From contig NMRA01000079.1 of NCBI GenBank assembly GCA_002633005.1, forward strand, positions 1,021,182 through 1,085,181: a DNA stretch of 64,000 bases, read 5' to 3'. Shown here piece after piece: positions 1-56,922 of the stretch. The notes beneath the pieces were generated by a model. The model ran no database searches. It was not told the origin of the DNA and was given only the letters and a program-made list of their open reading frames with translations. This stretch comes from Phoronis australis (taxonomy: Eukaryota > Animalia > Phoronida). The position numbers were made by a program, and so were the translations under genes. Every line of letters begins with the position of its first letter. Position 1 is the stretch's first letter.

Positions 1-215
1 TCTTAAGATGTATTTATTAAGTTCTTTTTGAGATACAGGGTCATGGCGGGAACTGTTTAAGTGAACAATGTATGTTTGCATTTGATAAAGTTTTACCTAA
101 GTTATGACTGAGGGACAGCAGGGATACACATTTTGTCACTTCCACAGACTTATATGGTGTGGAAACTGTTTACGTTACTTGGTTGGATTTTAGGAGCTGT
201 GGTCTTATGTTTCAG

Positions 216-308
216 TTAAACAAGCTATTTGATGACGATCAATTTGGAAACGACGTTGGTATCAGACTGGATTTCCCTTTCATCTACACGATGTCGGATA
301 AGGACGAG
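216..308 (+). CDS. Gene A coding exon 3
   Basis: ttcag|LNKLFDDDQFGNDVGIRLDFPFIYTMSDKDE|gtatgg; 93 nt like paralog exon [20 protein letters not shown]...EE. Confidence 0.85.
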
Positions 309-3300
309 GTATGGTGGTTAATCTGCTTAGAGCTAGGAATAATTCCTTATCAGCATACACGTGCGTTTGTGCACCCATGAGGTGCTGTAAATACACTAAT
401 TGATTTTGCATAGGCTTTCAAGGGCACTGAAGTGCCCGTGACGTACTGTAGCTTGCACGCCCCAAAATGGTATACAATGAAGTCTAACCCGGCTCGATTA
501 CATTATTGTGAAATCATCCTGATCTCATCAAAAACGTACAGTCGTGTAAAAATGCATTGTACACATTTTAACAGCTCTGCCATAATGTTTATTTAAGAAA
601 GTGGTCCATTTTTAGCTTTAGTGTCATAAGTTTAAATTTGATCGAAAATAAGGAAGTATTTGTAATTCAATCCGTGCGAGCAGACATCTACATGTACATG
701 TACGTGTAGATCTGAAGTTGTTCATTGCTGTTCCAGAACGAAGTGCTAGAGATGGCGCGCCGTATGAAGACGAGAGCTCCGAATGCAACTGCCTTGTCTT
801 TTCTTCAGTGGGCGGTGAGGAGAGCTGATTACCAAGCCAGCAAATCACATTTGCCGGTCCTCATTGTAGACGGGTATAAACTCACATCTGAGCTCACCTC
901 TTAGTGTGTTCATTGTTGTAGACTACTTTTGTGATCGATAATACAGGGATTTTCAAAATAGTTCACCATTTTAGAAAAGCGACTAAGATAGACGAATGTC
1001 GCCTACAGGGCGACTTTGAAACCTTCTTCAGAGATAGGAATGAGTTCTAAACCTTCGCGCTGATATACCAATCAAGAAAACTACTGGGCTTACATGTACG
1101 TCAGGTAATCAAGTCATTAATTTATGTCCAAAGTGAAAAGTGAAAAAGTCCTTCACACATTCCAGCCAATGTAATTGATTCTTCCAGTTCGACTGTCTGA
1201 TTTGACATTGGAAACAACAGCTGGCATTGAAGTAAAGGCTCCTAGCATGATATATCCAGAGTGCATTAATTTTCTTAAATTCTGCTTAGGCACGCGGCAA
1301 CAATACTATGTAACCGCCAATCAAATTTCTCTCCGTGCCCTTGGATTTGATTCCAAAACGCCCATTGTCAAAATAAACAAACTGGATCAATAATCCGTGT
1401 AATGACAAATTTTTCTCCTCTTCAGCGAAACGGAGTTTCGTTACTCCGCATACAAAACTGGGCTTTATGTGCACGCAGGAGACATCTGCAACCATCGCGT
1501 TGCTTTGGTGGAAGAAGGTCGCATACTAGACAGAGAAGGTGATCCCATATCAGACATGCAGATGGCGCATGACGTAGGGAGGACGTAAGTAACCTATTCT
1601 GCCAAAACAAACATCTAGTTTAACAGCAGATTTGGCTGTGCAGTCTGAGCATAGCATGCCTCAAGAAATGTCGTCTTAGTGTAAATCCGTCGTTCGTTAA
1701 AATTACGGATTGAATTACACGTAGATCGCTTCTTTCAGGAATCGATATCTTGTACCACTAGTCTAAACTTGTTCACTTCTCAGATTAAACGTGCTCACCG
1801 AGTTCGGAAAGGAATGGCAGATTATTTGAGCATAGGGGAATGCCACGTCATGCAGTTTGAGTATTTATTCAATACCTTTCCAAGTTGGAAGTCAAGTATC
1901 CAGGTTAAAGGCCTGTGGTCCGAGTTATAGACAAAAAACGTTTAACGCCATTTTAGCCGGGTTTTTTGGTATGACGTAAAGTTCATATAGAATATTACAT
2001 GGCGAAGTCGTTATCCCCCGTTATCTAGAGCCCGAGTGGATAATATTGTGGTATAAAAAAGTTATTAACTTTGAATACGTGCACAACATTTGCAAAAGTC
2101 GTTTTTAATGTTACCAACAAATGAGATGTTTACAAAGAATAAAAAGGATAGTCATTAAAATACAAAAGATATTACAATAACGCAACGCATGCGCAGCCAC
2201 AGGGGCAATACCGATACAAAATGCAAAGGTGTACTGCCGAAGGCGAAACGCGGGCGTACTGCTCTACGAGATTCTGAAAAGGACGAATTAGTCAGCAGAA
2301 AAAGCGGCACTACCGACAAACCGTGTACAAAAGCGAGTCGTTCGAAAGGTGTGAAACAATGAGGACAAGATTCAATCTTCGAACTCATAAAAATATTGAA
2401 AGTCTTTCGATGGACAAGTAAGTGTGCTGTTTGTAAAATGTTCAGTGACTCGTATGTACATATGTACGCTTCGAGCGTTCACTGCATGGGTAACTGATCT
2501 CAGTCGACATACATCAGACCAGATTTATTCTGAAGTTAATTCAGTCAGCTGTTCAGTGTTTCTCCTGTGATTTGTTGCCTTTACTTATACCGATTCACAC
2601 TGGCTGAGACTAATTAGTAATTTACACTTGTGAGTGCCAGGTCCTTTCATACTAACGTCGATCCGGCGATATTATGGGGATTTGCGGTCAATGTGAACGG
2701 TTAACTTCGGTCCGTGACCCAAGTTAACAACGCCAGTTAACTTCGCCGTTAACAGGTGACTTATCAGCGGAGCGCAGACGCTGCGGTGCAGTATGAACGG
2801 TCCTTGAACTTCGGTCCCATCGAAGTTATCGCCAGGAGGCACTGTTATCGTCAACGATTACAGAGCAGTGTTCTCGCTAATTGGTTGCTCATATTTTGCT
2901 CAATTCGAATTAGAACTAGGTTTTTGTGCCAATGATTAGCTCGTCAATATTCCCAAATTATAACATAGCGTGCAAGCGATGAATCAGCGCTACCTCGCGA
3001 TTACTTCGATGACAACAGCGCCAGCCACCGTTTACTTCGATGTCCGTTAACTACCGAAGCCTTTATGAACGGTTCAGTTAACTTCGCAGTTTACGCTCAG
3101 ACCGGAGTTAAGTCATTATGAAAGGGCATTTGTATTAGGATAGCAGTTGCCCTGGGGGAGGGGTGGGGGGAGTTTTTAGGCCGTGTAAGGGAGGTGTTGC
3201 CCACTCTCCCTCACATAGCTTTATTAGAAAGCTCGACTTGTCCCTGTTGGTCGTAGTGAGTACACTGGGTGGTGAGTTTTGGTTGACATGGCTGTCTACA

Positions 3301-6300
3301 TGTAATTACATGTAGTTCTGCTTTATGTTGAGCACTTACACATGCCCGTGTAAGTGTAGGTTGATATCTCTTATCCCATTAAGTTTTAAAAGAAGGAACA
3401 AATGTGACAAACTGGAGCTTATTATAGATAGCCAGTTTAAAAAGTTTTTGTGCGTTTCCATCTTAGACTTTTCAAGTAAGGAGAATTTTTTTATTTACAA
3501 CCGGCATGGTCCAACCACATTACGTGAACCCACAACCTCAGAAAATGAGACAATCAAGTCTCACGATTGGAGTAAAATTCTGTAAGTTTTCTCATGTCAC
3601 GGAATTTCTCAATTTTCCAGTTTTGTATCGAATGCAGATTAGGCAATGTGCTCTAATCCTTATTGTTTGTCAATATTAATATTACTTTATCAGTCTTTTA
3701 TGTTGCTGTCAGGTTAGAATGATCGTGTCTCAGCTATAAATGTTACCTACTGGTAAATCAAAGTTGTTTTAAACATTAAGGTATGACATGTTTACTTAAA
3801 GTGCATTCTTTAATCTTGGGATTTCTCCTGGTAAAATGAGACAAATTTTAGTATTTAAACCCTTCTTCGTCACATGCACAATCAGATTGAGTGCTTTAAA
3901 CGAGCTGCCCATACAAACTTTCTTTAAAGGAGTCCCAGACTGGTTATAGAAGCAGATCGCCTAACGAAACCTTGATGTTTTGTTCCATTTTAGTGCCTTA
4001 ATATCTCATGGGGGGATATTTCACATTTTATTCAGCTCACAACTCTTAATCGTAACCAAATGTGTCATCGTGGTCGTGTAAAGCATTAAAACTTACCTTG
4101 TTTAAAGCAAATTGTATTGCGGGAATCATCCATGACCCCAATATTTCAGGGATTACGTAATTCCGACAACTCTTTACCCCACCACTATGCACCAGCAACC
4201 TCCCCCCACTCAGCGATTTTTACAAAAAATACATTTACCAAGGCGTTTACATATGAGTTTTCAAAATGACCTCCCTGTGGCGGGCTTTTTTACCAAAAAA
4301 CTGCAGGTTGGACCTAGATTTCTACGTCTAAACAACCAAACAGCTTACCAAACAAATATTCGAGATATTTTTGAAAGATGCGTGCACTTCGAAGATGATT
4401 TGTGGTTTATATTTTGGCAACAGAACAATGTACATTAAAATGTATGAAACAGTATTTAGTTTTAGTTGTTTATGATAGATTTGTGTAATCCCTTCATCAA
4501 TCATATCTGCGTTATGTTTTTATCAGTGGTTTGTAAGATTTCCAGTTGAGCTAAGAACAGTTACAAAGTAACGACTTTGCCAATGAACTGGCTTAGAAAT
4601 GTATTTTAACTGCAATCGAATTTGAAACTTTGTGTATCCACAGACCTTCTTTTGATTACCCTAAAACAATTAATTATCATGCCCATGTTGCAGCATTCCA
4701 GGCTTGGCTATCCAAAACTCACAGGCGTTATAAAACAATTATCTGTTTAACCAGTAGCACAGAACTTTTATTACGCTGTGTTTACTGACACAGGCAAACT
4801 GGGATATTGCGTGATCAAGAACAGGCTTCACTGCACTTGCATGTCACTTTCACAAGGCTTATAGCTTGGGAGTTAGAAACCGATGATCTGCAACCACAAA
4901 TACCCATGATATACATGTACCACCATCACCATTACTACAAGCCAGTGTTTTGCCTAGTTGCCCCTTCCAAGCCCACAATGGGACCTAAGTCCACTCGTCT
5001 CCCCTAAATTCGCGTTTGTATGGTTTTATCTTGTCGATTCAATGTCACCGCTTCAGATTCACATATTCTTGTCTGAGTTTTCAGTATAGATGCCTCAGAA
5101 CGCATTTTAAACTGAAGGTCTTCTTACAAATGTCACTATTGCCATATTGCAGCGATTCAGAGCTGCTGTTCACCCTTGTCCTTATCTTCTTTGCATCCTT
5201 ACAATCTGCCATAAAGTTTGTGTCTACTCTTGTACAGACTCTGTGCTCTTTTGGAAATTAAGGTAGATATAAGCCTGCCTACTGTCAATAAACCAATTTT
5301 TCATTTGAACCAAGTATCATTAGTATGAAATTGATCTCGAATCGTTCCTTGATAAAAGTAGGTGTGAATTTCGGGCTAGAAAATTTCTAACAATTTGTTA
5401 TTATTCGATAAAGTTTCCTTACGTTGAATTGTCACAGCATGTCATTTTATTCACTTGACATGATCTCAACCATAGTGAACTGCCAGATCTGTTCAAGACC
5501 AAAACTGATCTCAATAAGGAATAAGGAAAATGCCGAGACCAATTCTATACTTAAACGTATAGTTAAAACGAAACGTCAATTTGCTTGGATAGATTAAGGT
5601 AGCCACAGTAATTGTTCTGCAAAAATCCAACTCTGTCGTCCCTGAATGTTTGTTTATTGTTGCTTCCTGATAGACGATGGTAGTATAAACCTTATTTGAG
5701 CATGATGAAACAGTTGCGTGGTAGCTATATTCATTCAACGGCTGGTGAGTAGCACTTGGGTTCAATTTCCAGTCTTAGAACTCTAGGATCCATGTTAAAA
5801 GGTTTTGCTTTGGCCATGAAAAGTTATGATGCGATGAAGATTCATATCAAGAATCAAATGACAATGTGCATTAGTTCATACATCATCTTTCTAACTTGTA
5901 ACCTCTCACACTTGTTGATACTAGCTTTCAGTCGGTGGAATGGGGGCGGTAATCATTGGCTGTACCCAACGGTGGTTTTCTTTGCATCGTTTCTTTGGTT
6001 ATGGTGCTTCCGTGCTCAATTGTATTGTACTTTTGCACAATCTTTTACAGGCTATAACGGTACTTTAGTGAGAAATCCAAGAAGTGTGCAGTTTATATAT
6101 CACCTATTTCACGAAAGCGCCATCTTCCCGCGCCATCTTTAAATACTGATCGAAAACGAGGCACACTGATAAAACCTCGTGAGTGATCATCAGCTGGCCA
6201 TGGTGTACTGTGCAGTGCCTGAACGTACCAATTCCAGTAATATCTTGTCGGTATCCTTCCCAGGGATATGCTTAGCCATTCGCCCAGTCACCAATGCTAG

Positions 6301-9300
6301 TAAAAATGGTGCTGGGTGAGTAGAAGTTGACTTGCCGGTCGCCCGGTGGCGAGCGAATTTCAGAGCGCAAAAGCACTATATATCGTTTCCCAGATGAATA
6401 TGAATAATTTTCCTCCTCCTTGTGCTGTTTTTATCATGAATTTAAGGTTCAGTTTGGTCATCGTGTCGATGCTCCGGCAGTAAAAAACATCGGCGCAGTG
6501 CGAACCTACCGATTCAGTACATGTCACCCGTTACGCGATTCGTCAAAAAACACAGTGTGTGGTCGTGCACAAAGAATTTGTGGACTAGTCCGAAACGAAG
6601 AAAAGGGGAGAAAGGTGGAAGACCGGTCCATGTGCTCATAGCAAATAAAATACCATATTTCTTGGAACTGATTTCTTATTGTAATGTACAATGTCATTTT
6701 AGCCAAAATTATTTTTATAACATTCGTCCTAATAAGCGCCCATGCCCCTATAAGCGTCCCCACTCGTTTTCAGACTTCGCTAAAATAAGCGCCCAGTCCA
6801 TGAATGTGTATATATCAGTGCGAAAAATGTCTTACCTCACAGTTCTAAAATTCTACAGTAAATGTATTCAATTTATCAATAATATCCGACAGTTCTGAAA
6901 AATCATTGTGCGCGTAATTTCTAGTAGACCACGAGCCTCGCCGCTATGTCGGTATTTAGCCGTGGCTGTACACTTCAAACCATTCCGCAGTGCTTCAAAA
7001 AGAACGCAAAAGATTTGCTGATCTTGCGCGGAAAGTGTCACACTACATGGTCTGGCCCTGATCAGAACAGACGCAGCGTACTCAGGTCAACGGGATTGGT
7101 ATTGTATCTTTCCCGTACAGATCTTCTCCCACAACAGGAATCCAGATTGTTTTGTACACGAAAAATTATAAAAACCGCGAATCGAAACTTGGCCAAGAAG
7201 CGCGCGCTAGGGCCCACATATAACATGTGGGCCTGCTCAATGAGATAAATATACTACATTATACAGCTCATTGGGCCTGCTACTCTGGCAAATGAACACT
7301 GATGACACGCACGCGCTCGCTCACTCGGTGCACACCAGCTGATTCACTTCAATACAAACGTCACGTGACAACAACATATGTGTTCGTCCAGATTTTTCTC
7401 GTTGCGGGGTGCGATCTAGCGCAGATTTTGACTTAATCTGCGGTTAATCCCGACTCCGAGTCCACAGGAACTTAAGAATCTTAGGAAAGGCTATTTGGGA
7501 GGATTTCAGGTAATTTGAGTCGAAACTATTTTTACTCAAGAATTCAAGTTGTCCTATCGACGATCGCGAAGCAGCGACGCATCAGTCGGCAAGTTTTCGC
7601 CCTGGGATTTCAGCACATTTTTTTTAAAAAGATCGTAATTTAACAACAGAGTTTGATAGCAATGCACCACAGTTTTGTAGCTAGTCTGTCATAGGTTACA
7701 CATACGTCACAGCGCGTAAATTTGATGAATCCTAGCTTCCGATTTCACCCGTTTCGGAGACCAGGTTTTAACTGCCGTAGGCTACAAAAAGAGTCCCCCT
7801 GGGCGCTTATTAGAGCGAATACGGTAGCCCTAATAGATGGTGACATCAGTGCACGAAACGATGATTTTTATTTAAATTAGCAGCAAGTTTGTGGTGACTG
7901 GCGCCAACGGCCGGGTGACCGAACTTCGGGCTTGGCGAGTAGATTTTCTGGCTCCGGCACTCACCCAGCTCCGGGCGAGCAGAAAAGCCTGGATATATCC
8001 CTGACTTCCACACTTTTTCAAAAGAGGGAAAACTATAAGGAATGGCTGAGGAGGGTAAAAGTCTAGTTGCCATAAGTATTGGTATGTTTTTGGAGATCGA
8101 TTCAACATCAGACAACTTGATTTTTGGTAACGTTGATAAGTCTTTTGACCACAACAACTTGCAGGACGATGCAATGTTTGTCAAGGCGCCGCGTTTTCGA
8201 GCAACACGACAGCAGCGCCCCGCGTTCGTGAAAGAGGTGAATACAGCACTGCAACTGGTGTCCATAATTAGTATACATGTATGCTTGGGAGAAGATCACG
8301 GCGTGCACAAACTTGACACATGAATTCCAGGGTCCAGCCTGTCCATTGCTTGGAGGTCAATGGTCTTGCAATGGCAACAAATGATAACTGATCTATCAAA
8401 CGAAACTATCACTGCCTTTGTGAACACTTAACAATTGACACTATCTTTAAAGTTCCTTTTGTACAATAGCTTGACCTTGATAAAACCTGTAGTCATCACA
8501 ACAGGACACAGTAGTATTTTTCATCTTATCAATTTACTGTTCAGTAGGGCCTATACATGTACAAGTTTAGCATTTTACTTTAGATTATATACGTTTAATA
8601 AACCAGCACTGCTTGATGACTGTCTCCTACATGCGACTCCAATACAGGGATACAGGACCTGCTTTGTAATTGAAGTGTTCATGTAACTTGGTTCAGGTTG
8701 AGTCTATCATCTGCTTTTGTCGATCCCGGTGGTAGTTTGAATTGACTACGTAATTAAAATAAATGCGTCCATGACTTAAGCATATTACGATTTATTACAT
8801 GTCATGTAGCAACTCTTGTTTGCATTTTCATGTATGTGATGTTGAGAATTACTGCTGTGAAATGCATTTGTTGTTGTGCAGGTTAAACTTTGGCACGGAA
8901 AATCCATTCTGTTCGTTAATGTGATTGCGTCATTGCTGTTAAAGCTACTATAAACATGCCTTCCATCAAATAAACCAACTCTTGATTTTGACTATTTATT
9001 GTCTCGGCCCATTCCTTACCCATAAGTGCAAGTGATTCCTGGAATTAGAAAAAAATGGCCTCAGCTTATGAAGTTGGCTTGAAACAGCGTGTCAATTTTC
9101 TAGGTGAATTCTTTCCAAGCCAAGAAACCTATCCTCACGTTCATACACAATGCAAGTCTAAGCAGTACATGGGTAACAGTGATACATTATATTCCATAGG
9201 ATACACATTAATGCAAATTGAAATTTCACTGTTCTAACTGTTTCGGACCAATTATGTTTAGTTCTCGAGTTAACTTGTCAATACTGACGCTAGAAATCTG

Positions 9301-12300
9301 ATAGCAGTCGACATTCAAGGACGATGGTTTTCGAAGCACACGTTAGGCCCTCTGTCCTGTGATCTGATGGATTGTGTTCTTGATAACGTGAGTCGCATAC
9401 TCAAACTCCGAAAAGGGTACAAAAGATAAAAGCAAGAACTTTTACCAACCTCCCACTGTCCCTAGCCTTTTATTTACAAAATCGAGACCATACCACCGAT
9501 AATACAAAGTCAACGAGTATGTTTTATTGGTTTCTGTGCAGTATCACGGTATTTTTAAAACGGATCATGTGAATTGAATGTTCGGTAACACTAGTATTCG
9601 CTGAAATGTGGCCGAAATCACATGGTCTAATTTAAAATGCTCTGCAATATCTCACGTAATCTTGTTAAGTCTTGTTCTTATCGAGGTCCTAGCATTACTG
9701 AACTCTACCCAAGTTAGGGTTATGTAACGCTAGGATCTGCGGAAGGTCCCACGAGGTTGTTTGATATAGTGCCGCGTGTTTTTAATGAGAACATGCTCGT
9801 AAAATTGATATTTCTAGTCGCGAGTCAGCTACATGTAGTGAGCTCTACCCTTTTTTAAATACAGATCGGTACTGCAATATAATTGAAGGTTTGAAACAAA
9901 AGCATTGCCAAAGCACCTACTGTATAAACCTGCGTGCAATCCAAAAAGCGGACTTTAGATTAAAACGGTCAAACCTTGATGGCATTTGTGCCCGCATAAT
10001 TACCGCTTTGTTAAACTAACATGTAGTCTGGCTTCCGTCAAGTATTACGATTCCTACTGTATGTTCTTTACAAGGCGTGAAATGATCTCTTTCCTAGGGG
10101 ATATTTTGGTATCAATTTGAGTGGCCTTTGATAAATCAAAATATTCTTGTTTGGTAACAGAACTGAGACCTGCCTTATTGAATATAAACNTAGCATTACT
10201 GAACTCTACCCAAGGTAGGGTTATGTAACGCTAGGATCTGCGGAAGGTCCCACGAGGTTGTTTGATATAGTGCCGCGTGTTTTTAATGAGAACATGATCG
10301 TAAAATTGATATTTCTAGTCGCGAGTCAGCTACATGTAGTGAGCTCTACCCTTTTTTAAATACAGATCGGTACTGCAATATAATTGAAGGTTTGAAACAA
10401 AAGCATTGCCAAAGCACCTACATGTACTGTATAAACCTGCGTGCAATCCAAAAAGCGGACTTTAGATTAAAACGGTCAAACCTTGATGGCATTTGTGCCC
10501 GCATAATTACCGCTTTGTTAAACTAACATGTAGTCTGGCTTCCGTCAAGTATTACGATTCCTACTGTATGTTCTTTACAAGGCGTGAAATGATCTCTTTC
10601 CTAGGGGATATTTTGGTATCAATTTGAGTGGCCTTTGATAAATCAAAATATTCTTGTTTGGTAACAGAACTGAGACCTGCCTTATTGAATATAAACTCTG
10701 GGAATGAATTACATACTTGGAGTGGTTCGGTCAGGATTTTTTTATGTTCTTTTTCAGTTTAGGTCTGCCAGGAAACCAGCTATCATGTTCCGAGGGCATT
10801 ATGGAATCCCGGGAGACGCATAAAGGTTGGTCCGCTTGTAGCAAGCAGAAATTAAAGAAGATACTAAGGTACTGAAATTAAACCTTCTACTAACCAAGGC
10901 TTTACATGTTACTTAAACGTTAAAGTATATTTGAGAACAGACGACTTGGTTTCTTTTGCTGACATCGCTTTTTGCATTCATGAACATAATTTAAAGTGAT
11001 GTCATTACCGACAACATCGTGTGCTACGCATGCGCAACCCAAGAACGGAAGCCTCAAGAGAAAAACCTGGTGACATGTACCATCAAGAGATGATTGACTA
11101 CACGAATCGAATAACTACATGTATTCAGATGAACGGAGGGCGGTAATAGTTCCCGTAGTCACAGTAGTTTTCTATATAGGCCTACACTGGACAATTAAAC
11201 GTACGAAATCCACGCATAAAACCGCAATTACAGATCACTCTTTTTAGAATCCTTTCTAATCCTGACCAAATCTCGACAAAATCTCCTCAGGTTTTCTATG
11301 TTCATTTTGTCGAAGTTGTTACAATTCATTTCGCAAGTCCATTGTATCAAGTGACATTTAATGCCCAAGCAAACTAGTAACGTAGATCAATTACACTGTG
11401 AACACTATTTTATTGCGACTAAAGGTCGAACAAACTTCTTAAGTCGGAGTTCTGTCGAATTTTGCATATACTATTTTGAAAAATACTTTAGACTGGGCTA
11501 GCCCAGCTTTCAGTTACATGAACACAACATCGCCTAACCCCACCTATCATTCACATGTTGATCATTTCGGTGTGACCGCAATGAAATTTATCTGGCAATG
11601 GAAACGTGTGACTTACAAAACAACACCAATGTGCAAGCTGCCGCATTGACTGAATCTTCGGGATTTTGACTGGATGCCTTAAGCATTGTTGGTTGTTATC
11701 AACATTTGTTGGCATCCATGCTTGATTACCCCTAACAACAGAACAATCATTTATCGTTCAAACTTGCATATTTATAAGAAAACGCACAGACGTGGATAAC
11801 ATCTGGTGGACAGACGTCCTATTTGACGCCTTACGACAAATTAGGGTAACATTTTAAGAAAAGGGACACATTAAGATGGCCGATATCCTGGCAGATAACT
11901 TGCGACAGCCTTTCGCCAATAGAGCCTAATCAAAAATCATTTAATTGGAATGTATACATTTAGGTATATCATTGCCAGAGTAAATTGGTGTGTTTTGTAT
12001 CCCAACACAATTAAGAAATAGCTACCGTGATTACACTTTCCGTCAATGGCGGAATCTGGCAAAGCTAGTGCCTCGTCTTCATTTTTCGCAAAGTAACCTG
12101 TTCTACGAAAAACAGCCTTGCTCTGCCATCTGATTCGTTGGCAGACGCTTAAAAGGAAGAACTGACTACGGTTTGTTTCATCATGCGTGTGGTAAAATAA
12201 TACTCCTTGTGATCGTAGGGCACGGAAGCATTGTCAAAGGGTGTGTACTTTTGACAATCATCCTCCACTAAATTTGTTCACAAGATCACTTTACTCCATT

Positions 12301-15300
12301 CCCAGCGACCCGTGGATATACTCTTGCTTGGAATATCAAGAAGGTTCCATGCCAGTGCCGAAGGCTTCTCTTGGCCTTATTTCAGCGGAGGACTTTGAGG
12401 CAATCAAACAAAACTGTAATGATGACATGGTTGCTACTCACTGGGTATACAAAGGCAAGTTCTCCAGGACAATTAGCTACACACTTCTCGCCAGACGCTT
12501 CTCGCCATGGGTAAGTCGGCTAGGGACACAGAGCATTGTTTGAGAATACATATATTTCGTGTTCACTAGTCAAAAATGCCCTTGTACCTCTTGGCCCCAT
12601 TCATGTTTCAGTGTTAAAGAGTTCCAAGTATTAATTAAAGGTGTATTTGCATGAACCTAACTATGCTAATAAATAGCAGGAACTAAACGTCAATCTATTT
12701 TAACTTCATATGCACTAAACGAGGTGCAGATGTATTCGTAGACACAATGTAAATGTAAAAACAAAAAATAGGAAATAGGTGGCCTTTGCACGAATGGCGT
12801 ATCTTAGGCGCTCGCATAGCCAAGGTCATGCACTGTTATTCCTCACAACCACGTCACGATAATTACTGGATTCGGTTGAGTGATTTACGGAGGATCATTT
12901 TCGACCCAAAATTCGTCCAAAAAAACATTTGGCAGTTTTCAACCTACTTCATATTCACATAATCGCTTGTTTCTAACTAATGTGACCAACTATGAAACAA
13001 TTACAGCAATAAGGAATTAGCGTGCATGTTCCACTTTAAATTCTAACCGTGTCAGTCTGTCAAACTCATTGCATTATTACGTGCAGAGCTACCTAAGATA
13101 GAACTGAGGGACCCACATGGATTATATGTGTGCTTGTATGCTACATCTAATTTCCCAACATCAACCTAAATCAACGCTTCCACTTACCAAGCTATCGCGT
13201 AGTCTAGTACACGTTAATCTTTAAGACCGGCCTCTTTCGTCAGTGGATAAGGGAATGTTCATGCACAGTGAGGGTATTTGACATCGCCACTGCCCGGGTG
13301 AGATTGTGGATTATGAAAACTAAATATGTCTTTGGAAATCGAACTCGGTTTTTCATCGGCAACAGACGAATTTAGAATGGTTTGCCAAAATCTTAGCTGC
13401 CTGAGTAGCACAATAACGGGTTGAATTGTATACATCACTGCACAATAGTGCTTAACTGGGTGGTCTTGATTTCCTGAAAAGAATAGTGTTGTTTCAGCGA
13501 GTGAGCACGTCACGCACGCTTGGCAGCCTTCATAAAGACAACTCGTAAAAATTTAGACGGGATGGGCCTTAAAATCTTTGCTACCAGGATACATGTTCAA
13601 GCAACCTGGGGCTTATGTAGAAATTTGTAGTTACTGGGATTAAAATTTGTTACAACTAAATGTGGTTCTCGACTTTTTTTAGCTGAGGTTTTCCGAGAGA
13701 TCGTTATCCGACATTCAGATCAATTTCAAGTCGCCTTGATGACTTTTGGCTTAGGTAAAACTGGCTGTATTGAAACAAGTCATAGTACGTCTTTTGTATG
13801 TATCGCTACATATATTTCACGCGCTTTGATTAGCAACGCCTGGACAATATCTGCAAGTGGACGCCGTGCAGACGACAAGTTGGCAGATTCAACCAACAAT
13901 TCTATTCTGCAACTCCAAGAAACACAGTGGGTTATCTGTGCGGAAAAAACAAGGTAATTACCTGTTTTCAAAACGGTGTCATATCCCGTTGCGCTGTTGC
14001 TTTGAAAATGTGATTCCGTTTTTTTTGCCTGCTCTGGGGTATCTAAAAGAACACTAGTGGGTGAAATCGTTACCAAAACACGTATTTTGTTTAGATAGCG
14101 TCCCCTAAATCTTAGCTTTTTGCATGGATTGGTGCGTTAACGTAGGTCAAGTGAACCTTTGTCCTAAAATTCTCCTAATTTTCGTTCGTATAGCCGCAAG
14201 TGGTCACAAATAGAAATTCAAATATAAGCAAGCAGTTGGCTCTACAAAGGATGGTGAATACCATAATGCACAATTTCTTGTGCTTACTACGCGCATATTT
14301 TCATATCCTCCCATTGTTAGTGTTTTCCACACAAAGTCTTCGGTCTTTTTATTTTTGCTCATTTTTATGGCATTCAGGACAATGGTGCGACCATTACATA
14401 ATATGTAGGCAGCGTTTTACATGTACACATTTTAGTACCATACTACGGATTGATCTAAAGCTCCGTCTGCGATCCCCTCGACCCCCACACCCTTTGACCC
14501 TCTCAATCCAATTTACTGTGCACAATCTCGACTCTATCTGAAAATACAAAAAGCGCTGACTTGCAGGAACAACGAGTCGGGCCGTGAGTTCGACTGACTT
14601 TCCCCTTTTTGCAATAAAGAGAGTAGATTTGGCAAGTTTGAAAGCCAAAAACGGAAAAATAAACTCGACCTAATCAAACTAAAGACCTACCAACGTTACA
14701 AATGTCGTCCCTGGCAGAGTTCAATCGTCTCGTCTGCTCTTCAGTGAATGATAGATTTAACCTTTTACGTAGAGTGCGAAGAACCGACAAAAACGTAATT
14801 TCATTAGTAAATACAATTTAGAAAACAAACTGTTGACTTAAAAGCATCTCTACTTTACATGGAGTATATTATAGACGAGTATACAACAGAAAGCAAATAA
14901 TAAAAATGTAAAATAATATACATTCACGATAACGTATCTCTCACTAAGTTTAGTAGAACTGGGCCATTGGTAACCAATTAAGAATCTATTTCCGTCGCAG
15001 CGGCAGCACAACCACAATTCGTTATTTCAGAACACGTTCTCACACCAATTTCTGTTTGTAAGCACCCACCTGAGTCAGAGTAGACTCTCGTGTAGTTATG
15101 TCTTTTGGGAAAGTAATTCAGTGTCGTATTAATGATTATAAAATGTGCAGGAAGCGAAAAGATACATCTCTTGCCACAGGTCGTTGGTCAAGGAGGTGTG
15201 GGTCGTGGGTTATGGGTCATGGGGTTGTGGATCGAGAGGCGTGTGGGGGTTGCGAGGGCTTTAGAACAATCCGTATCATATATTCACCGCCTTTTCTTCT

Positions 15301-18054
15301 TCCTGCAACGAAGTCCGCTCCCAGTCGCGGATTTAAGGGGGCATGCCCCCCTAAAATTCTAACAGATACCATTTGGCAGTTCGGGATGCGAATCGATGAC
15401 TAGCATATGCGCGCGCACAGGGGAGCTCGGGGGACGAATGCACAATGCATAGGCCTTCAACTAATCATGTTCACCGTTTTGTTTTAGTAAAAATGTTCGC
15501 AAACCCAAAAATTCGATACCCCAGCATCCCTAGGTTTAGGTTGGACGCGCGCGAGTGGTGAAATTCTGGTTATTCCTGTGCCCTGACTCCCCAACACAAA
15601 ATCCTGGATCCGCCCCTGCCTCCGAGACGCTCCATTAGTTGTCATCAAGAGGGACTGGCATAACTTAGATTATTCATGTATGTGAGAAAAAGTTTTGGGA
15701 CAGTACACAGTAGATACACTGTTGGACCCACCCCCATTTGTCTCATTGTTTTGTCACCCCGCTGCTATCCACAGCATGTCTCGCCGGAAAATATCACCGT
15801 TTTTGAGTAGTATGAACTGACCGTCAGCAGTTCACCCTCGTGTCAGAATATCTCTTCCCAAAAATGCGAATCAAAGCACCAATAGTATGATGTCCTTTAG
15901 GTTATGTATGACCTCTGGACATAATTATAGTTCATTATGCATTAATGGAGAGCTTTAAACGCAATTTCTAATAACGTTTTTTAGAACGGGGAATCTAGAA
16001 TAGAATGTAAAATTTCCATATGAACCCGATCAGGCATATCTTAGGAATGATGATTCAAATTTAGACACATACATGTATGTGTGTACATTTTACTAGGGTC
16101 TAACACGACCGTAGATGTATATTCCTTACCAACCGACATTAAAATTGGTACGCAATCTGACAAGATCTGACAATTCTTGATGGAACGTTTGAGAATACTT
16201 CATAAGTGACCTCGGACTTAACACATTTTTTGTCACTTGTAATGGTACTTGCGTAATCAGAAACGCAGTCAGCACATTTATAATGCTACAGGGTACTGAC
16301 TAAGCACGTTATTTTGTTTTATGGAGCTCGTTCCAGTTCGGTTACCCAGATAGATATACATGTATTGCTAACACGCTCGTGTTCTTCGATTTTGGATTAG
16401 ACCTCCACTTAATTCGCCCAATTCGATTTTCACTAAATTCACTTTGAACATCTATCTTCAGTATCTATCAACAGCTATCTTCACAATTTCAGATTTGCGA
16501 AAATTCAAACCGTTGTGTATCGGCTGGAAACTCAGGCTGTGGTCAAAGAGAGACGTTAACAGAACCCGAGGGAGCCTTGTCTTCGTTTAGATTCAATGGC
16601 AAAGATTTCTACCTTCCGAACATGTTTTGTTCTTGGAGAATCAGGCTTAATAAGAAACAGCAAGTGTCTGTAAGTGACGTCAAATGTACTATAGTTCCGC
16701 AGGGTGTATCACGGCTCATGTATTTTTTCTCCACCTGCCACGAACTCCCAGAGCAATATGATACATGTGCACGTAAACTCGTTCTTAATCCGACAGCATA
16801 CGTTGTAGGCGAGTGAAAGTGACAGTTGGTAATAACACTGACCGTCAACTTCAATTGCAGTAGTAATGACCACATTAGGCTGTTTTTCGTCATTTGTTTT
16901 TGGTTGTTATAATTTAGTTAGGACATTGTGAAAATTGAGAATTCTTTTCATTCACCATTTGAGGAAGAGACATCATGATCGAGGACACGCATACGCCCGT
17001 TGTGGCTTAGGTGGATTATACTATGGACACACTGTCTCTAAATAAGACCAACTGGGTGTTCCTTTCATCAGCATACAGAACAACTTGTCTATACCCCGAG
17101 GGAATAGTAGCTACATGCACGAAGAGAATTTAAGTTCACGAATATATTATTTTTTGAACGTACACGTACATGTAACTCCTCAAATTTGAGTTTTCCTTAG
17201 GTTTTGCTATGCCTATATGCTGCTTCCTGAGTCCTGTTGTGCAATCATAACCTTAGCTGAGGGTAATTTGGCACTCATGATGGTGTTTGTTTGAAAAACA
17301 TTTCAACTAAAGGATCGGTTTCATGAAAGTGGCCTAACGCAGAAACTTGGTCTTAATCAATACCTTGAAATGATGGATAGTAACTAGCAGTTACGTGTGT
17401 AAATTTAAGGAGTTTCCACTTTTGATCAAGTGTGGTTTAAAGTTTTTTAAGAAACAGTTGTGTATACATGTAGGAGCATAAGACTAAACTTTGTCGTAAC
17501 TTTTGTGAAACTTTTCATGAAACACACCCCAGCAGCAATGCACAGAACAAAATTTTAAAGGTAACGTTCAAACGATACTATAAGTGACCAACGTGTGGAC
17601 AAAGGTATTCTTTTTTCTTTAAAATTAGCTGGAAATCCAGGTAATGGATGTCCTCGGCTACGATGATGATAACTGCATGGTGAAAACCGGCTACGTCATA
17701 ATTGGTGACCGGGTGTCTGTTTTCGACGGACCGAGCTCCAAGTCAAAGCACGTGATGACGTTCTGCAATGGAAAACGGGCGATGATTATTTCTTCTACAT
17801 ATATGCTTTATGTAGAATTTGTAACAGACAGTAGCCTAACGTCAGTAGGTACCGGGTTTAAGGCAACGTACACATCCGTTGTGCTTGAAAATGACGGAGA
17901 GCCGTACGTGGTGATATTAGGCCTACCAGAAGAAGACGGTGAGACTCGTGTGGCAAAGTTCCTCTCCAACGGATGCATGAAACCAGTGATATCAATCGAC
18001 ACTATTGTCTCTGCATTGCATATGTTAGTTATGGGAATGCGTGGTCTACTGTAG
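216..18054 (+). CDS. Gene A (5'-partial): ADAMTS-like M12B fold + Cys-rich + CUB protein, predicted catalytically inactive, possible GPI-anchor tail; join(216-308,737-873,1426-1584,10758-10868,12306-12510,13834-13953,16493-16669,17629-18054)
   Basis: 8 GT-AG exons with the same phases and near-identical lengths (93,137,159,111,205,120,177) as paralog exons 3-9; spliced frame open for 475 aa; zinc-motif region reads MAHDVGRTLGLPG; CUB motifs GCG...YLPN..CSWRI...GDRVSVFDG...FCNG...FVTD...GFKATY. Confidence 0.88.
737..873 (+). CDS. Gene A coding exon 4
   Basis: ccag|NEVLEMARRMKTRAPNATALSFLQWAVRRADYQASKSHLPVLIVD-gg|gtataa; 137 nt, phase 0/2 as in paralogs. Confidence 0.8.
1426..1584 (+). CDS. 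Gene A coding exon 5 (degenerate zinc motif, first half)
   Basis: ttcag|ETEFRYSAYKTGLYVHAGDICNHRVALVEEGRILDREGDPISDMQMAHDVGR-ac|gtaagt. Confidence 0.85.
2641..3127. mobile_element. MITE-like non-autonomous element
   Basis: Imperfect terminal inverted repeats gtcctttcata...ccgg / ccgg...tatgaaagggc; multiple internal gttaacttcg sub-repeats. Confidence 0.55.
6261..8003. mobile_element. Non-autonomous hAT-like element
   Basis: Termini CAGGGATAT...ATATCCCTG, subterminal tcgccc/ggcgag repeats at both ends, flanks ccttcc / acttcc resemble a degenerate target duplication. Confidence 0.55.
6718..7826. mobile_element. Tc1/mariner-type MITE nested in the hAT-like element
   Basis: Inverted termini attcgtcctaataagcgccc / gggcgcttattagagcgaatacggTA. 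Confidence 0.65.
9580..9850. mobile_element. Two adjacent copies of a ~140-bp MITE family
   Basis: Shares gttcagtaac.ctaggacct / aggtcctag..tactgaactctaccc ends with 34641-34793, 44558-44680, 60430-60555. Confidence 0.5.
9690..10696. repeat. ~500-bp direct duplication flanking N at 10190 (probable haplotype/contig overlap)
   Basis: 9690-10189 nearly identical to 10191-10696; differences include a 6-bp indel. Confidence 0.9.
10758..10868 (+). CDS. Gene A coding exon 6 (Met-turn)
   Basis: ttcag|LGLPGNQLSCSEGIMESRETHKGWSACSKQKLKKIL-ag|gtactg; 111 nt as in paralogs. Confidence 0.85.
12306..12510 (+). CDS. Gene A coding exon 7
   Basis: ccag|DPWIYSCLEYQEGSMPVPK...RRFSPW|gtaagt; 205 nt. Confidence 0.9.
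13834..13953 (+). CDS. Gene A coding exon 8 (Cys-rich)
   Basis: ttag|QRLDNICKWTPCRRQVGRFNQQFYSATPRNTVGYLCGKNK|gtaatt. Confidence 0.88.
15322..15618. mobile_element. MITE with CAG.GGCGGAT-type termini
   Basis: cagtcgcggatttaagggg ... cctggatccgcccctg; related degenerate copy near 43000-43129. Confidence 0.5.
16493..16669 (+). CDS. Gene A coding exon 9 (Cys-rich end, CUB start)
   Basis: ttcag|[20 protein letters not shown]...YLPNMFCSWRIRLNKKQQVS|gtaagt; 177 nt. Confidence 0.9.
17311..17532. mobile_element. MITE-like element
   Basis: Inverted gtttcatgaaa / tttcatgaaac termini. Confidence 0.4.
17629..18054 (+). CDS. Gene A coding exon 10 (CUB end + C-terminal extension)
   Basis: ttag|LEIQVMDVLG...GFKATYTSV followed by 57 extra residues ending SNGCMKPVISIDTIVSALHMLVMGMRGLL-TAG. 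Confidence 0.85.
   Translation: MEIQVMDVLGYDDDNCMVKTGYVIIGDRVSVFDGPSSKSKHVMTFCNGKRAMIISSTYMLYVEFVTDSSLTSVGTGFKATYTSVVLENDGEPYVVILGLPEEDGETRVAKFLSNGCMKPVISIDTIVSALHMLVMGMRGLL

Positions 18055-19274: not shown

Positions 19275-19352
<78 letters not shown>
19275..19352. repeat. (TA)n microsatellite
   Basis: Two TA runs separated by cacagtg. Confidence 0.95.
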
Positions 19353-24500: not shown

Positions 24501-27500
24501 TCAAAGTCCGCATTTGCTCTTCAGACAACTGTAATGCACTCATCACTTGAAGGGAAATGAACAACGCAAACTGCAGTCGAACAGGGTGCACATTTAATAT
24601 GTTCACACAATTAAAACATTCACATTGAGTTAATGATAGTGAAGACCTTTTGATAAAATGACCATTGTTTAATCTGAGTTTACATTTTCCAGGATAATCT
24701 CAGCATAATGCGATTGCTGTTATGGTTAGTGGTTTTCTCTGCCGGTGAGTACGTAACACTACCGTAGGCTACTACTTTCCTTGATTTTATGTTGCGTATG
24801 AAGAATAAATTATTTAAAATTAGCAACACCAGTCTCCGGGAAGTTTTCGTTTTTTTTGTGGGAATCGAACTCGAACTATGTCCGTTATACTGAAGTGTAG
24901 ACACAAGAGAACTGCCAATACTTCCATTATAGGGGTATATTTTGGTTTGCCAGGCTGACTGCGAGATCTTATTTTGCAATTGATTGGGTTCGAGTTCTGA
25001 GTCTGAACACAAAATGTCGAAATTTTACCCGAGTTTCAAGTTGGAGTTTAATGGTCAGCAAGTGCGAATTTGGACTGCACATTACACAAACCAAACCAAG
25101 CACAGAACAGCAGACACTCGCTCGCACTACAAGTAGAGGAGAAGAAAAATGCCAAAAGTACTTTTAAGTTCGTTTACCATATAAAGACGTGTTCTCGAGC
25201 CCGCATTGTCTTTGTCTCTCTCAAACCTGAGATTAATTGTTGGCTTCTCATCGCAATTGTACAAAATTGAAACGTGTTTCCAGCAAATGTTAAATCAAAC
25301 ATGTGCTAATTGGTTTTATGTGTATATATTGAAAAGGCATTGAAGGTAATTATTTATCAGTGGGTGTTTGTTAACGTAGTTGAATAAGTACAAGTAGACT
25401 GATGAAACGCAAATACAAATGGTTATATGAATTCATTTACATCCACATTTGTAAACTTGCATTACGCCTTCTTGGAAGAAAACACGTAGAACGAAAACTC
25501 AAATAGCGTGGCTTAGTGTTTTCTGTAAACAAAACTTGGATTATAGTAGCTGGTAATTTTTCTTGCACGTGCTTAATCCCAGATAAATCAATGCCATCAG
25601 TCAACTAAACGTGCACGTTATTTGCAAAATATCTCGTAATTTTGATTTGGCGTGAGCCCTAAATTTCTTTTTTGCAAAAAAAAAACGCAAACTTGCCCAT
25701 CACTGATATTGTGATAAGAACAATACTCCTACCCCATTGTGAAAATGCATGGGCCATATACTGGAGGAAAAAGAAAAGACAGTTACTGGTGTTTTATGCC
25801 GTTGCATTGGCTATAGGCCTGAAGTGAAACTTTCCCCAAAGTACAGGCCTACATCTAAGGGAAAAGGAACGGTATTTGGATGAGATTAGTCGGGAGCTGC
25901 TTGGTTTCGCCCATTCAGCCATGCAGGATTTTTTCGTTTTCGTTAAAATGCTTCATTTCCAGTATAATGCTTCTAAACGGAAACAACTAACCACAGGCCA
26001 ACTGATCCTTGACCTCCAGTGATGCGTGCATGGATAAATCGTCGACTTGCTCTCAAGTTTTCCTTGGATTCTTAACAGTTACAAATAAAAATGATGCTAT
26101 TATATTACTCTGAAGTGGTGATTTGTGTCTTTCAGTTTCAGTGAGTGGCAGCGGCGCTCGGCGGCACAGGGCAAGGGTTCGAGGCGACGAGGGGATGCGA
26201 CGTAAAGTTCGAATTGCGCTCTTCTTCTCCAAAAGTCTCATGGATTCGTGGGTGTCTAGGAAGAATGTGCCTGCAAGCGAATTGACCGACTATCTGCAGT
26301 CCACATTTCTGCAAGAGGTAGGGTTTTAGAATCCCATAAGTCATTTGAGTTCCACGTTGTCAAAGGCAGCTTACAAAGTCTATGAGTTCTTGATTGTTCA
26401 TTCTCAGCGGTACTATCGTGTGCATGCATTGCATGCCGCCGTTCCCTGCATTTGTAAACGCTGCTCCGGGGCTAAGATTTGATGTCGTTTTGTTAAGGCC
26501 AGTTTAGCCAACGATATTCTCATTTGCATCATATCTTTTATGCCCAAGACCGACATAACGCATGTTCTTATTACAGAATCCAATATTCTACGATACCAAT
26601 TTGACAATTATACCATTGATTATCCCCAGTCTGGTCATTTGCATCTACATGGATGCATGAAAACTGATAATAACCTTATTAAACAAATTTAGTCATTACC
26701 AGTTGATGCAACAAGAATCATCAGAGTGTCCAGAAAAATTGAGCAAGAGCCAAGTTTGTGCGGAACTGCATTATAGTTTGCGTTGTCAGAATCTTTCTCT
26801 TTGAACCCACACCAAGTATTAGTTGAGGGCTTAGGTTAGCCAGTGATCTATTACAATGTAATGCTCAGTCTATGTGTGTTGTTACTGAGTGGTCTCGAAC
26901 GACCTTATTACATTTTCAAGTTGCAGAAGCTTTTTGTTTGGTATACTACACTGTTAGACTTGAATAATTCGGTAAATTTTAACCAGCTCAATTTTAATGA
27001 CTCGATTATTACTATTACTACTTTTATTTTTATTATTGTTTTTGTTATTAATATTACTATTATTATTATTATTATTATTATTATTGTTATTGTTATTGTT
27101 ATTGTTATTGTTATTGTTATTGTTATTGTTATTGTTGTTGTTGTTGTTGTTATTGTTATTATTACACGAATTATACATGTAAATAGTGCTATACCGGAAG
27201 TAGTAGCTCAGCACTGGCGGCAGCACATACAGCAGCCGCCGCCGATCTAGGATTTAAGGTACAGGATTTTACTGTACCTGCGGCGTCATCTTTGTTGTGT
27301 AGGCCTTATTTTTATGGTGCCTCCTGATCAAACTAAGAGCATCAGTCTCACTAGCAGCATTACTTGATACAGTAGGCGCAGCAGTAGTAGCGCCTTACCG
27401 CTAGTCGAACCAGTGGCACTAAGAAGCAGAAGCCGTCCCGGTAGTTGGGACGTGTAAGTAAAGTGAGCTATAGAAGCGCCGGTTACACTACTCGCGCTAG

Positions 27501-30500
27501 TTATAACAGCTGTGCAGCAACAAGTGCAGTAGTCTTACCAATAGCAGTAGCCCTCCCAGTACTTGAATCATTAGCAGTAGCGAGTAGCAATTAGCATCCT
27601 ATGTTACTTTACAAGAACAAGCCTGTACGATATTGTAACTGAGGCATAACATTTTCAAATAGCAGGAGATATACCAGTGGCAATAGCCGCACTATTGAGG
27701 TAGGCTCATCGATATTAGGAGTCCTACAGTTAACAGTAGTCACATCAATATCAATACCTCTAGCAGGAGACTTCAAGTAGCAGTGGACATACCCTAGCCT
27801 CATCGGTAGCAGGAGCCCCAGAAATATCAGATGTTAAACCAGTACCAGTAGCTGCACCCGTTACAACAGCAGTAGTAGCAGCATCACTAGTAACAGTATA
27901 ATGAGAGGTTATAGTGGCAGCCATATTGGTTGTGGTCGTGTGTTGTACATGTACCTGTAGTGCCCAATTAACAGGAAGTGGATGTCAATTAGTACTAGTA
28001 GTAGTGGCAGTGGTCTTATGTTTTGTCTTAGCACTATTTGTGTTCAACGACTCTATCCATGTTTATCACTGCTGGTAGCTGTTTGTTGTACAGTATAACT
28101 GCATCTTTACATGGTTTCTAGACTCCACACCCTTGTACAATTAGCCTGTACTTAAAGAGTTTTCACCAGGACCTCAAAAAGTATTTTATTAATACACCCT
28201 GATAGATTTAATAGCCTTTAGTATACCTACTGTAAAGAAACAAGTCAAAAATTAAAGAAACAATCTGTTATCGCGGTTGTGCGTAATGGGTGGAAGGCCG
28301 TCTCAGCCGTCGTTGTTTTATACCAGTACGCTGATACCGAGGAGTTTTGAGGACAGTCCGCGTAGAACACGTGGAGAATTTGTCGCTCAAACTGGTGACC
28401 CACCGCTCTTATTTTCTAAGCCCCAGACACCTGTTATGATGTCTATTCAGCACGCCCTCTGTATTGAAGTAGTGGAAAGGTAATTCCTAGCATTACTGTC
28501 TCAACAATAGGTTGTTGTTAGTACCCCCAATTTGGTTTTCTCTGACATTTGCTGAGTTATAGCCTGCAACGCTGGAGAGTAGGTTTAACTTGGTACATTA
28601 TAAATATTACAAAATGACTAAAAAGGTTTACTTGTGTTTATCTTCACAAAGGGCCACTTCCCAAAGGAACGATAAGTTTCATATTTGTTTTCTTTATTTA
28701 ATTTTTAATGCTTCTGCCCATTTGTTGTTTTTTTTTCTTACCGGGAACGGGTTGATAACTTGTTATCCAAGTTTTGAACTTCAAGTGAAGTACCAAAACA
28801 GAGGTACATTTTGATCGACAGCTACACTTAATTAGTTGAGTTCATTGTGAGCCCATCCCTAAACTTACCACATCACAGGTACACTAAACATTTCACGTGT
28901 CATTAAAGTTTATTATCTACTCGAACTCAAATCATGAAATATGTACAAAAGTGCAAATATGGCGATTACCAAACTGAAGGTTTGCAATCGCTGGACAATT
29001 TCGGTGGCACTGACTATTTAACTATCAGTCAGTAAGAAAAAATGAAAAGCAGGCACAACAACTGTTTCCTGGTCAAAAATCTGATTAAACGAGATTGAAA
29101 AAATATTAGAAAATGAATCCATGTGATATTGTTAACTCTGATCAGCGTTTGTATATCCACCGAGTACATGTATATCAATACGCGCGGTAGTTTATCTTCA
29201 ATCGTACCCAATGGTTGTAGTTTCTAGGTTATTAGTTCATCGATTTTTAAAAATCGAAAACCGTACGTGGTTGGTTTGTTTCCAGCTGAATACCGCCGTG
29301 GTGTTTGTTTATAACAAAATTGGTGGTTCGTGCATTTTGAAAATTCGGCATTATGTACAGTCAGAAATGTCTAATACAGTTTATGGTCGGATAATTACAT
29401 TTAATTGGGCCTTGCTTGCATTGGGCAATGCGGTCATCACAATTCTGCATGATTCCGGCGCCGCGCGGTGAAAATTTTCGCATATTCTTAGAAATGCGTT
29501 ACTTCCTTCTAAGCTTTCTACGCGTTTGTGAAGGTTGTAGTAACATGACTGAGAACGTCTCTGCATTCGAATTTCCTAAATACATGTACCTGAAACGGAA
29601 TACGTTTGTACTCTGCACGAGAGTGTCGAGTGTGGAAAGAGCGATTCAGTTGGGAGAAACATTTTGTTCGCCTGCACCTGTTCAAGGAATCGCGTTTCGG
29701 GCAAACACAGAAGCGACGTTACTGAGTAACGTCCTTTATCGTAACTTACGATAAAGGACTCGACACCTTGTAAGTGTATAAGCAAAATAACGAACAAACT
29801 TGCTTCCATTCTAAAGTGATCGAGTGATGTCAGGCCCTCGACGCCGGTCCACATCTAGTCCTACGACACGTAGTAGGCTTATGCATTACGTTTAGACCGT
29901 GCTCATTCCGTCATAGCAATGGTGAATGTGAGTGACCCAGCTTTACTGTGACCTATATGTATGCCCCTGATTATTAAGAATCTAATTTTGTGAACATTAA
30001 CTACCCCCTGGTTCAATTGGTTGTGCCTCGCATATGACTGCAGTATTTCTCCTGTAAGTGGGTTTGGGTTCATACTGCCTCAAAGCTGACGAAAGTTGGT
30101 ACATGTAAGTGGGAAATCGAATTCATTCTCTATTCTTCATTTACTCGAGTATGATGCCCGTATTCACTCTCTCCCACTGTCTTCTCCGTCTGCATAATAA
30201 TTGTCCACTTCCCGTTCAAAATCGCCCTCGCCTTCTTGTCTGCTGTTTTCCGCCATTGCAGTTGATTGTCAAGTGACCAAACGTCTCCCCCCATTACATC
30301 AATTGGTGGAAAAACTTGGAAATAACTAATTTTTCTTCAAAATAAAAAATGGCGATTATTCGGCATAAAAAGTGCTTATTTAATTTTGCATTAGCAAACT
30401 GAAATCTCAAAAACTAAGAAAATGCATGGCAGGAACTCTTTAAGCAATGCATTTCATTTGAGTGAGCACTTGCAGTCCGCACGCATCAACCAGGTAACCA

Positions 30501-37277: not shown

Positions 37278-37358
37278 TTGGACTTAGCCTACCGTCCATA
37301 TGGATTGGACTTAGCCTACCGTCCATATGGATTGGACTTAGCCTACCGTCCATATGGG
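37278..37358. repeat. 27-bp tandem repeat x3
   Basis: ttggacttagcctaccgtccatatgg(a/g) three times head to tail. Confidence 0.95.
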
Positions 37359-39072: not shown

Positions 39073-39109
39073 ATGCGATTGGTGTCTCTGTTGTTAGTTT
39101 TCGCTGCAA
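39073..39109 (+). CDS. Gene C coding exon 1 (signal peptide)
   Basis: aaa[15 protein letters not shown]-a|gtaagt; 37 nt; acceptor cttacag ends 39047. Confidence 0.82.
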
Positions 39110-42100: not shown

Positions 42101-42283
42101 TTGGCCTAGATAAAAAGTTAAGGCCCTGAAACAGGTGTGTTTACTTAACTCTCAAGCAAATTACTCACAATTCCTGAGCTAAGTGTAAGCGTGGGAGACT
42201 GCGTGTTTGTGGGTGTGTGTGTGCGTGCGTGCGTGTTTGTGTGTGTGTGTGTGTGTGTGTATGTTTGTGTGTGTGTGTATGTT

Positions 42284-42314
<31 letters not shown>

Positions 42315-56885: not shown

Positions 56886-56922
56886 ATGCAGTTGTTACCA
56901 GTGGCAGTATTTCTAGGGACCG
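56886..56922 (+). CDS. Gene D coding exon 1 (signal peptide)
   Basis: MQLLPVAVFLGT-g|gtgagt; 37 nt; acceptor tttccag ends 56871. Confidence 0.82.

Follow-up and report, generated by a model that had tools for sequence, protein, structure and literature searches.

A transcribed and constrained gene with a degenerate zinc motif, a predicted pseudo-protease, in a tandem array of metzincin paralogs of Phoronis australis

A metalloprotease gene with a degenerate zinc-binding motif may be a pseudogene, an enzyme with an altered metal site, or the source of a protein that is maintained without being an enzyme. This question is raised by gene A, one of four tandem paralogs (A to D), all on the plus strand and with identical exon phases, in a stretch of 64,000 nucleotides of Phoronis australis (assembly GCA_002633005.1, contig NMRA01000079.1, positions 1,021,182 to 1,085,181 of the forward strand). 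This whole stretch, hereafter the window, is eukaryotic DNA with ~40% guanine plus cytosine. Our results suggest that A is very probably a pseudo-protease rather than a pseudogene or an enzyme. In metzincins, three histidines are the zinc ligands and a glutamate is the general base (PMC9848320), and a change of this glutamate to aspartate alone has been reported, citing earlier work, to abolish the activity of GP63 (PMC11957388). Since A lacks the general-base glutamate and two of the three histidine ligands, its product is predicted to be inactive, and its designation as a pseudo-protease is supported by this chemistry, which needs the glutamate and all three histidines.

The visible exons of A, numbered by homology to paralog B, are given below with the RNA reads that span each joint. 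The RNA consisted of four data sets with the same species label (X1 to X3 and a contig set, X4), and the analysis covered ~18-19% of each raw run.

216-18054, plus strand: gene A, 8 exons in the window (3-10), with exons 1-2 upstream of the window start
216..308, plus strand: exon 3, protease domain; joint 308/737 with 21 (X1) and 42 (X2) reads
737..873, plus strand: exon 4, protease domain, one family cysteine missing; joint 873/1426 with 27 (X1) and 30 (X2) reads
1426..1584, plus strand: exon 5, H-D-V-G-R, with Asp for Glu at 1571-1573 and Arg for His at 1580-1582
1585..10757, plus strand: intron of 9173 bases with many dispersed repeats and a ~500-base duplication around an N
10758..10868, plus strand: exon 6, LGLPG (Gly for the third His), the methionine turn (Met-turn) GIM and WSAC; joint 1584/10758 with 32 (X1) and 13 (X2) reads
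12306..12510, plus strand: exon 7, end of the protease domain and start of the cysteine-rich part; joint 10868/12306 with 23 (X1) and 22 (X2) reads
13834..13953, plus strand: exon 8, cysteine-rich part; joint 12510/13834 with 21 (X1) and 26 (X2) reads
16493..16669, plus strand: exon 9, end of the cysteine-rich part and start of CUB (Pfam CUB, expect value (E) 3.9e-4); joint 13953/16493 with 34 (X1) and 20 (X2) reads
17629..18054, plus strand: exon 10, rest of CUB (Pfam, E 3.5e-5), a 58-residue tail and the stop; joint 16669/17629 with 11 (X1) and 20 (X2) reads

As an earlier note on this DNA had described, the eight exons have canonical splice sites (seven GT-AG introns) and hold 475 open codons with no stop and no frameshift, up to a TAG stop codon at 18052-18054. 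The coordinates given in that note, 1426..10868, cover the two motif exons only; the gene spans 216-18054 and starts outside the window. A frameshift first suspected in exon 10 was not real. Exon 5 ends with HDVGR followed by AC|gtaagt and exon 6 opens with T|LGLPG, which gives the spliced motif HDVGRTLGLPG. Relative to HEVGHIFGFQH in B, the general-base glutamate is replaced by aspartate (GAC), the second histidine by arginine and the third by glycine, such that one of the three histidines is kept, in both DNA and RNA; these replacements, proposed earlier, are borne out by the exon ends and by the RNA. The codons of both replaced histidines match those of the paralogs at none of their three bases. 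The motif glycine and the Met-turn are indeed retained: GIM occupies residues 143-145 of the protein encoded in the window, with the same spacing as in B-D, and lies 10 residues past the third-ligand position in A as in B. The further claim that 'WSACS' and 'SCL' are kept holds for the tryptophan, the serine and the cysteine, but the paralogs read WSxCT/I and PCL/M. The protease domain of A scored 78 bits against a profile of five intact-motif relatives and 500 shuffles scored at most 3 bits, so the register of the motif is not in doubt. No further family exon and no alternative exon restoring HExxH was found between 880 and 24700 (tblastn, all four proteins, E up to 10). Within the 9173-base intron, two copies that are 98.4% identical (9690-10189 and 10191-10696) lie on either side of a single N.

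All seven joints of A were spanned by RNA reads in X1 and X2, on the plus strand only, including the joint between the two motif exons. Depth on the exons was ~20-45, a rough level of 17-19 per kb per million letters, and exon 10 was covered. All RNA reads present G>A at 1574 (Val to Ile, HDIGR), and some are otherwise identical to the window. Because reads differing at 1574 only cover the motif, the aspartate stands in RNA, and no other letter was listed there for the Asp, Arg or Gly codons. In X3 and X4, depth on A was zero in exon-only bins. The intron repeats of the A region (1-18300) were covered in X3 as in X1 and X2, and X3 contained fewer near-identical reads overall. The lack of A reads in X3 may stem either from the tissue, with expression restricted, or from the individual sampled, if it is more distant. 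A non-canonical joint at 13612-13830, just upstream of exon 8, was also observed (5 reads in X1 and 2 in X2).

Differences between RNA and window indicate that A is under constraint. The set comprises 21 exonic differences in exons 5-10, taken from 40 of 61 rows after removal of the 19 rows that were intronic or 3', and one difference in exons 3-4, from 40 of 969 rows listed, such that heterozygous sites in these two exons may be missing. We counted 12 synonymous and 10 nonsynonymous differences, and none of these 22 listed differences creates a stop or a frameshift. The ratio of nonsynonymous to synonymous polymorphism (pN/pS) was 0.25 (p 0.0014), or 0.27-0.32 with transition weighting (p 0.003-0.007), and exons 5-10 alone presented 11 synonymous and 10 nonsynonymous differences (p 0.0036). 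Because pN/pS is 0.25-0.32 with p 0.001-0.007, A is not a neutral pseudogene; the earlier claim to this effect is upheld by this ratio, well under 1, and by the spliced, stranded RNA over seven junctions. CUB was the sole domain significant alone (5 synonymous and 2 nonsynonymous, pN/pS 0.12, p 0.009), and the C-terminal tail presented 2 synonymous differences and 1 conservative nonsynonymous difference (p 0.15). The significant signal of constraint comes from CUB and the C-terminal two-thirds of A. In a simple neutral simulation, with an indel rate of our choosing, the frame was kept in 16/500, 1/500, 0/500 and 0/500 runs at 2, 5, 10 and 30% divergence, respectively.

Second codon positions are 52-61% identical between A and B-D, and 36/159 four-fold sites are identical (nine domain comparisons). 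Since four-fold sites are at random identity, the split of A from B-D appears to be old, which dates the duplication and not the catalytic loss. The loss of the motif is probably old too, because both histidine codons differ from those of the paralogs at all three bases. Estimates of nonsynonymous (dN) and synonymous (dS) divergence with LWL85 (dN 0.67, dS 2.1-2.7 for two of the three pairs) are unreliable, as synonymous sites are saturated.

Protein searches yielded three relatives from outside the window: P0007 (Tubulanus polymorphus XP_074656461.1), P0005 (XP_074657019.1, same nemertean) and P0008. P0007, which A matches at E 5e-19, and P0008 possess N-terminal ShK domains, the same protease and cysteine-rich core, and HETGH motifs that are intact and followed by the third histidine. 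The Tubulanus polymorphus and P0008 relatives are 31-32% identical to B-D and 22-26% to A. A tree of six sequences (271 ungapped columns) placed P0007 and P0008 together, apart from A-D. Measured from one common node, the branch of A is 1.49 long and those of B-D are 0.57-0.78. Because B-D and the outgroup P0007/P0008 keep HExxHxxGxxH (with one change at the glycine in C, see below), the sequences indicate that the intact motif is ancestral and its loss in A derived. The protease core comes with N-terminal ShK domains in P0007/P0008 and with a C-terminal CUB in A-D, which suggests domain shuffling within this family. As to its wider affinities, P0007 matched Pfam Reprolysin_5 at E 3e-4, with the Pfam reprolysin models below cut-off; a three-sequence profile matched the catalytic domain of ADAMTS-5 (E 6e-4); and in the Atlas, features matched reprolysin clusters at 0.93 and ADAMTS models at a template modeling score of 0.56 (protease and cysteine-rich part), all ADAMTS matches being remote and obtained with the outgroup proteins rather than with A itself. 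We infer from this indirect chain of matches that A-D are reprolysins (M12B), nearest to the ADAMTS-type protease and cysteine-rich domain.

Single exons of the protease domain of A gave no Pfam family match, and a search of PDB with an exon-5 profile returned nothing relevant. Predicted models were too poor to use (predicted local distance difference test 35 for P0007 alone and 39 for P0008 with two relatives), and Foldseek with the P0008-based model found no match at E 0.001, the best being ADAMTS-5 at 2.4e-3, a lead only. An exon-7 profile gave 6 matches among 1.84 billion representatives, of which P0005 is a relative, and matched 0 of 880 candidates among longer proteins. Of the other matches of the exon-7 profile, P0002 and P0004 are repeat proteins and P0001, P0003 and P0006 are hits in several stretches, and two loci from a metagenome scan, with matches of 9-11 residues, were treated as chance. 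Neither gene A nor its family was found in the literature searched, outside of which lie most subscription journals, and the family appears uncharacterised.

The C-terminal end distinguishes A further, as it alone among the paralogs extends 58 residues past CUB; 57 open codons would arise by chance with a probability of ~0.04. This tail contains a triplet of small residues 29 residues from the end, followed by a terminal hydrophobic stretch (best 19-residue mean 1.6). Judged by eye and hydropathy only, it resembles the pattern of a glycosylphosphatidylinositol (GPI) anchor signal: an omega site of small residues, a spacer and a hydrophobic end. B-D start with signal-like hydrophobic exons. On this basis we lean slightly towards a surface-anchored product for A.

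Constraint across A is uneven and the protease domain is its least conserved part. A keeps 34 of the 58 residues that are invariant in the five intact-motif relatives, with 14/34 kept in the protease domain vs 20/24 in the cysteine-rich part (Fisher p 0.0025); with the motif excluded, 12/28 are kept in the protease domain (p 0.004). Of the 16 cysteines common to B and C, A keeps 14, and both lost cysteines belong to the protease domain and may represent one disulfide. Identity of A to B-D is 25-27% in the protease domain and 38-40% elsewhere, when B-D are 62-75% identical, about equally in all domains. These differences, together with the significance of CUB alone, raise the possibility that A is a functional non-enzyme whose protease domain is a decaying spacer, with selection acting on the cysteine-rich part, CUB and the reading frame. 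We regard this as a serious minority option. However, the protease domain aligns over 165/167 residues to B with almost no indels, its second codon positions are 52-54% identical vs ~25% at four-fold sites, and exons 3-6 have kept the Met-turn, the motif glycine, three of the five family cysteines and the score on the family profile reported above. The earlier view that selection maintains the protease fold stands for selection on A but is weakened for the fold itself, for which neutrality is possible.

Alternatively, A might retain an altered metal site or weak hydrolysis through the remaining histidine and the aspartate, or through nearby acidic or histidine residues. The first histidine, the motif glycine and the Met-turn are kept and a change of glutamate to aspartate is conservative, but the second and third ligand positions are taken by arginine and glycine, the methionine is also retained in known pseudo-ADAMs (PMC11266112, Table 2), and a literature search pairing HEXXH with HDXXH found nothing, which makes this option improbable. 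A transcribed pseudogene, disabled in exons 1-2 or lately freed from selection, would be consistent with the position of these exons off the window, the very long intron full of repeats, the long branch of A and the absence of A reads in X3; given the low pN/pS among present alleles, the accurate splicing and the lack of stops or frameshifts among the listed exonic differences, we consider it very improbable. Finally, the N with its duplicated 500-base flank inside the long intron could suggest an artefact of assembly or gene model, in which mis-assembly of the 9 kb intron brought together exons of two genes, or in which the motif contains base errors. This is refuted by the 45 RNA reads that join 1584 to 10758 exactly, the motif is covered by reads differing at 1574 only and its replaced codons are up to three bases off those of the paralogs, which leaves the artefact with a negligible probability.

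Several observations weigh against the reading of A as a constrained, anchored pseudo-protease. Only exons 3-10 were read, exons 1-2 with any signal peptide lying off the window, and the searches above did not reveal an ortholog of A in any other species. X1 and X2 share heterozygous sites, such that at most three haplotypes are compared. The signal is not significant in the protease domain (3 synonymous and 4 nonsynonymous, pN/pS 0.39, p 0.20) nor in the cysteine-rich part (2 synonymous and 3 nonsynonymous, pN/pS 0.45, p 0.32), and exon 5 presents five fixed differences between RNA and window, four nonsynonymous and one synonymous, the highest load among the exons of A. Some splicing uses an acceptor at 10763 (4 reads in X1 and 2 in X2, i.e., 6/51 from donor 1584), 5 bases past the main acceptor, which shifts the frame and leads to an early stop. 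The hydrophobicity of the tail is moderate, with Asp, His and Arg within.

With these points weighed, we moderately favor an account in which A is a transcribed and constrained ADAMTS-like paralog without zinc, acting as a non-cutting extracellular binding protein that is probably tethered to the surface. Its product would bind no catalytic zinc, and the protease domain would be kept as a loosely constrained scaffold. The pattern of constraint suggests that the cysteine-rich and CUB domains are the working surfaces, presumably for binding, and the new tail would serve as a GPI-type anchor signal. Most likely A would act in adhesion, or would present at the surface a decoy or docking site to the kind of ligand that its active paralogs would cut. 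As the nearest relatives come from a nemertean, a role in venom was also considered as a possibility. A fuller scenario is rather unlikely and is offered tentatively: in an array of secreted ADAMTS-like proteases, one duplicate would have lost its zinc site, with an Arg-Asp pair filling the empty metal pocket, and gained a GPI anchor by extension of its last exon. As a receptor or decoy at the cell surface, its product would position or limit the active sister proteases or the substrates of these, and a pseudo-protease receptor of the ADAM22 type would thereby have evolved a second time, independently, in an invertebrate family not described before. The arginine in place of zinc, the partner and the location of A are inferred rather than observed.

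Pseudo-proteases of M12B that act as receptors or scaffolds are already well known, and A would be an independent new case. ADAM2, 7, 11, 18, 22, 23, 29 and 32 and UNC-71 of C. elegans have a degenerate zinc motif and keep the Met-turn; ADAM2, 7, 11, 22 and 23 and UNC-71 act by binding, and ADAM22 uses the surface of its inactive protease domain to bind LGI1 (PMC11266112). A resembles these proteins in its M12B protease domain, degenerate zinc motif and retained Met-turn. Unlike ADAMs, it shows no disintegrin domain, EGF domain, or transmembrane segment with cytoplasmic tail; CUB follows the cysteine-rich part and the hydrophobic stretch is terminal. Unlike the non-catalytic ADAMs, it appears to have arisen independently, among local tandem duplicates. 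Table 2 of PMC11266112 lists eight M12 pseudo-motifs, and Asp/Arg/Gly at the positions seen in A occurs in none of them. The catalytic and cysteine-rich ('disintegrin-like') module of ADAMTS-5 and -1 is the best sequence and structure match for the family, but no spacer and, in B-D, no long prodomain were seen, and no thrombospondin type-1 repeat was matched in the eight exons of A, three exons of B, P0007 or P0008. In its architecture, A fits neither the ADAMs nor the ADAMTS proteins. P0005, P0007 and P0008 share the protease and cysteine-rich core with A-D but differ in their N-terminal ShK in place of a C-terminal CUB and, relative to A, in their intact zinc motif. In Trypanosoma cruzi, the inactive groups G9/G10 of GP63, an M8 protease, lack the catalytic glutamate and are arrayed paralogs with predicted GPI anchors (PMC11957388); like A they are metzincin paralogs in arrays, but they belong to another family and kingdom and offer an analogy only. 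The array, in which a copy with a lost motif neighbors three intact paralogs of identical exon structure, offers a clean natural comparison of which domains stay under constraint once catalysis is lost, and perhaps of a linked shift in which a secreted enzyme became an anchored binding protein.

The three paralogs are the following.

24708..36092, plus strand: paralog B, 10 exons, 482 amino acids, intact motif HEVGHIFGFQH, ends at CUB
39073..50458, plus strand: paralog C, 10 exons, 483 amino acids, motif HEVGHILDFQH, Glu and three His present
56886 to beyond 63321, plus strand: paralog D, 9 exons seen (to 63321), intact motif HEIGHIFGFDH

The last exon of D was not found within the 64-kb window. 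Over their whole length, B-D are 57-69% identical to one another and 32-34% identical to A, and all three present a signal-like peptide, a short basic segment, the protease domain, the cysteine-rich part and CUB, with Pfam CUB matched in the last exons of A and B. The basic segment (within 24708-26317, 39073-39886 and 56886-57665) contains RxxR and no cysteine, and neither a long prodomain nor a cysteine switch was seen in B-D. In C, the motif glycine is changed to aspartate (45456-45470), with the glutamate and the three histidines retained. Copies that are 98.8% identical (47012-47790 and 47792-48570) flank a single N, and exons 7-8 of C thus appear twice; these copies and those at 9690-10696 most probably represent two haplotypes that the assembly has placed end to end. 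Between C and D, an ATG opens a stretch of 32 codons (51716-51811) whose first part is hydrophobic and which has a strong GTGAGT donor; it may represent an orphan exon or else exon 1 of a further gene for a secreted protein. The window also contains a 34-base tandem repeat with 7.2 copies, as well as a 27-base repeat and microsatellites (AT, TTA/TTG and GT); the repeats are located at the following positions.

56113-56357
19275-19352
27005-27164
37278-37361
42203-42351

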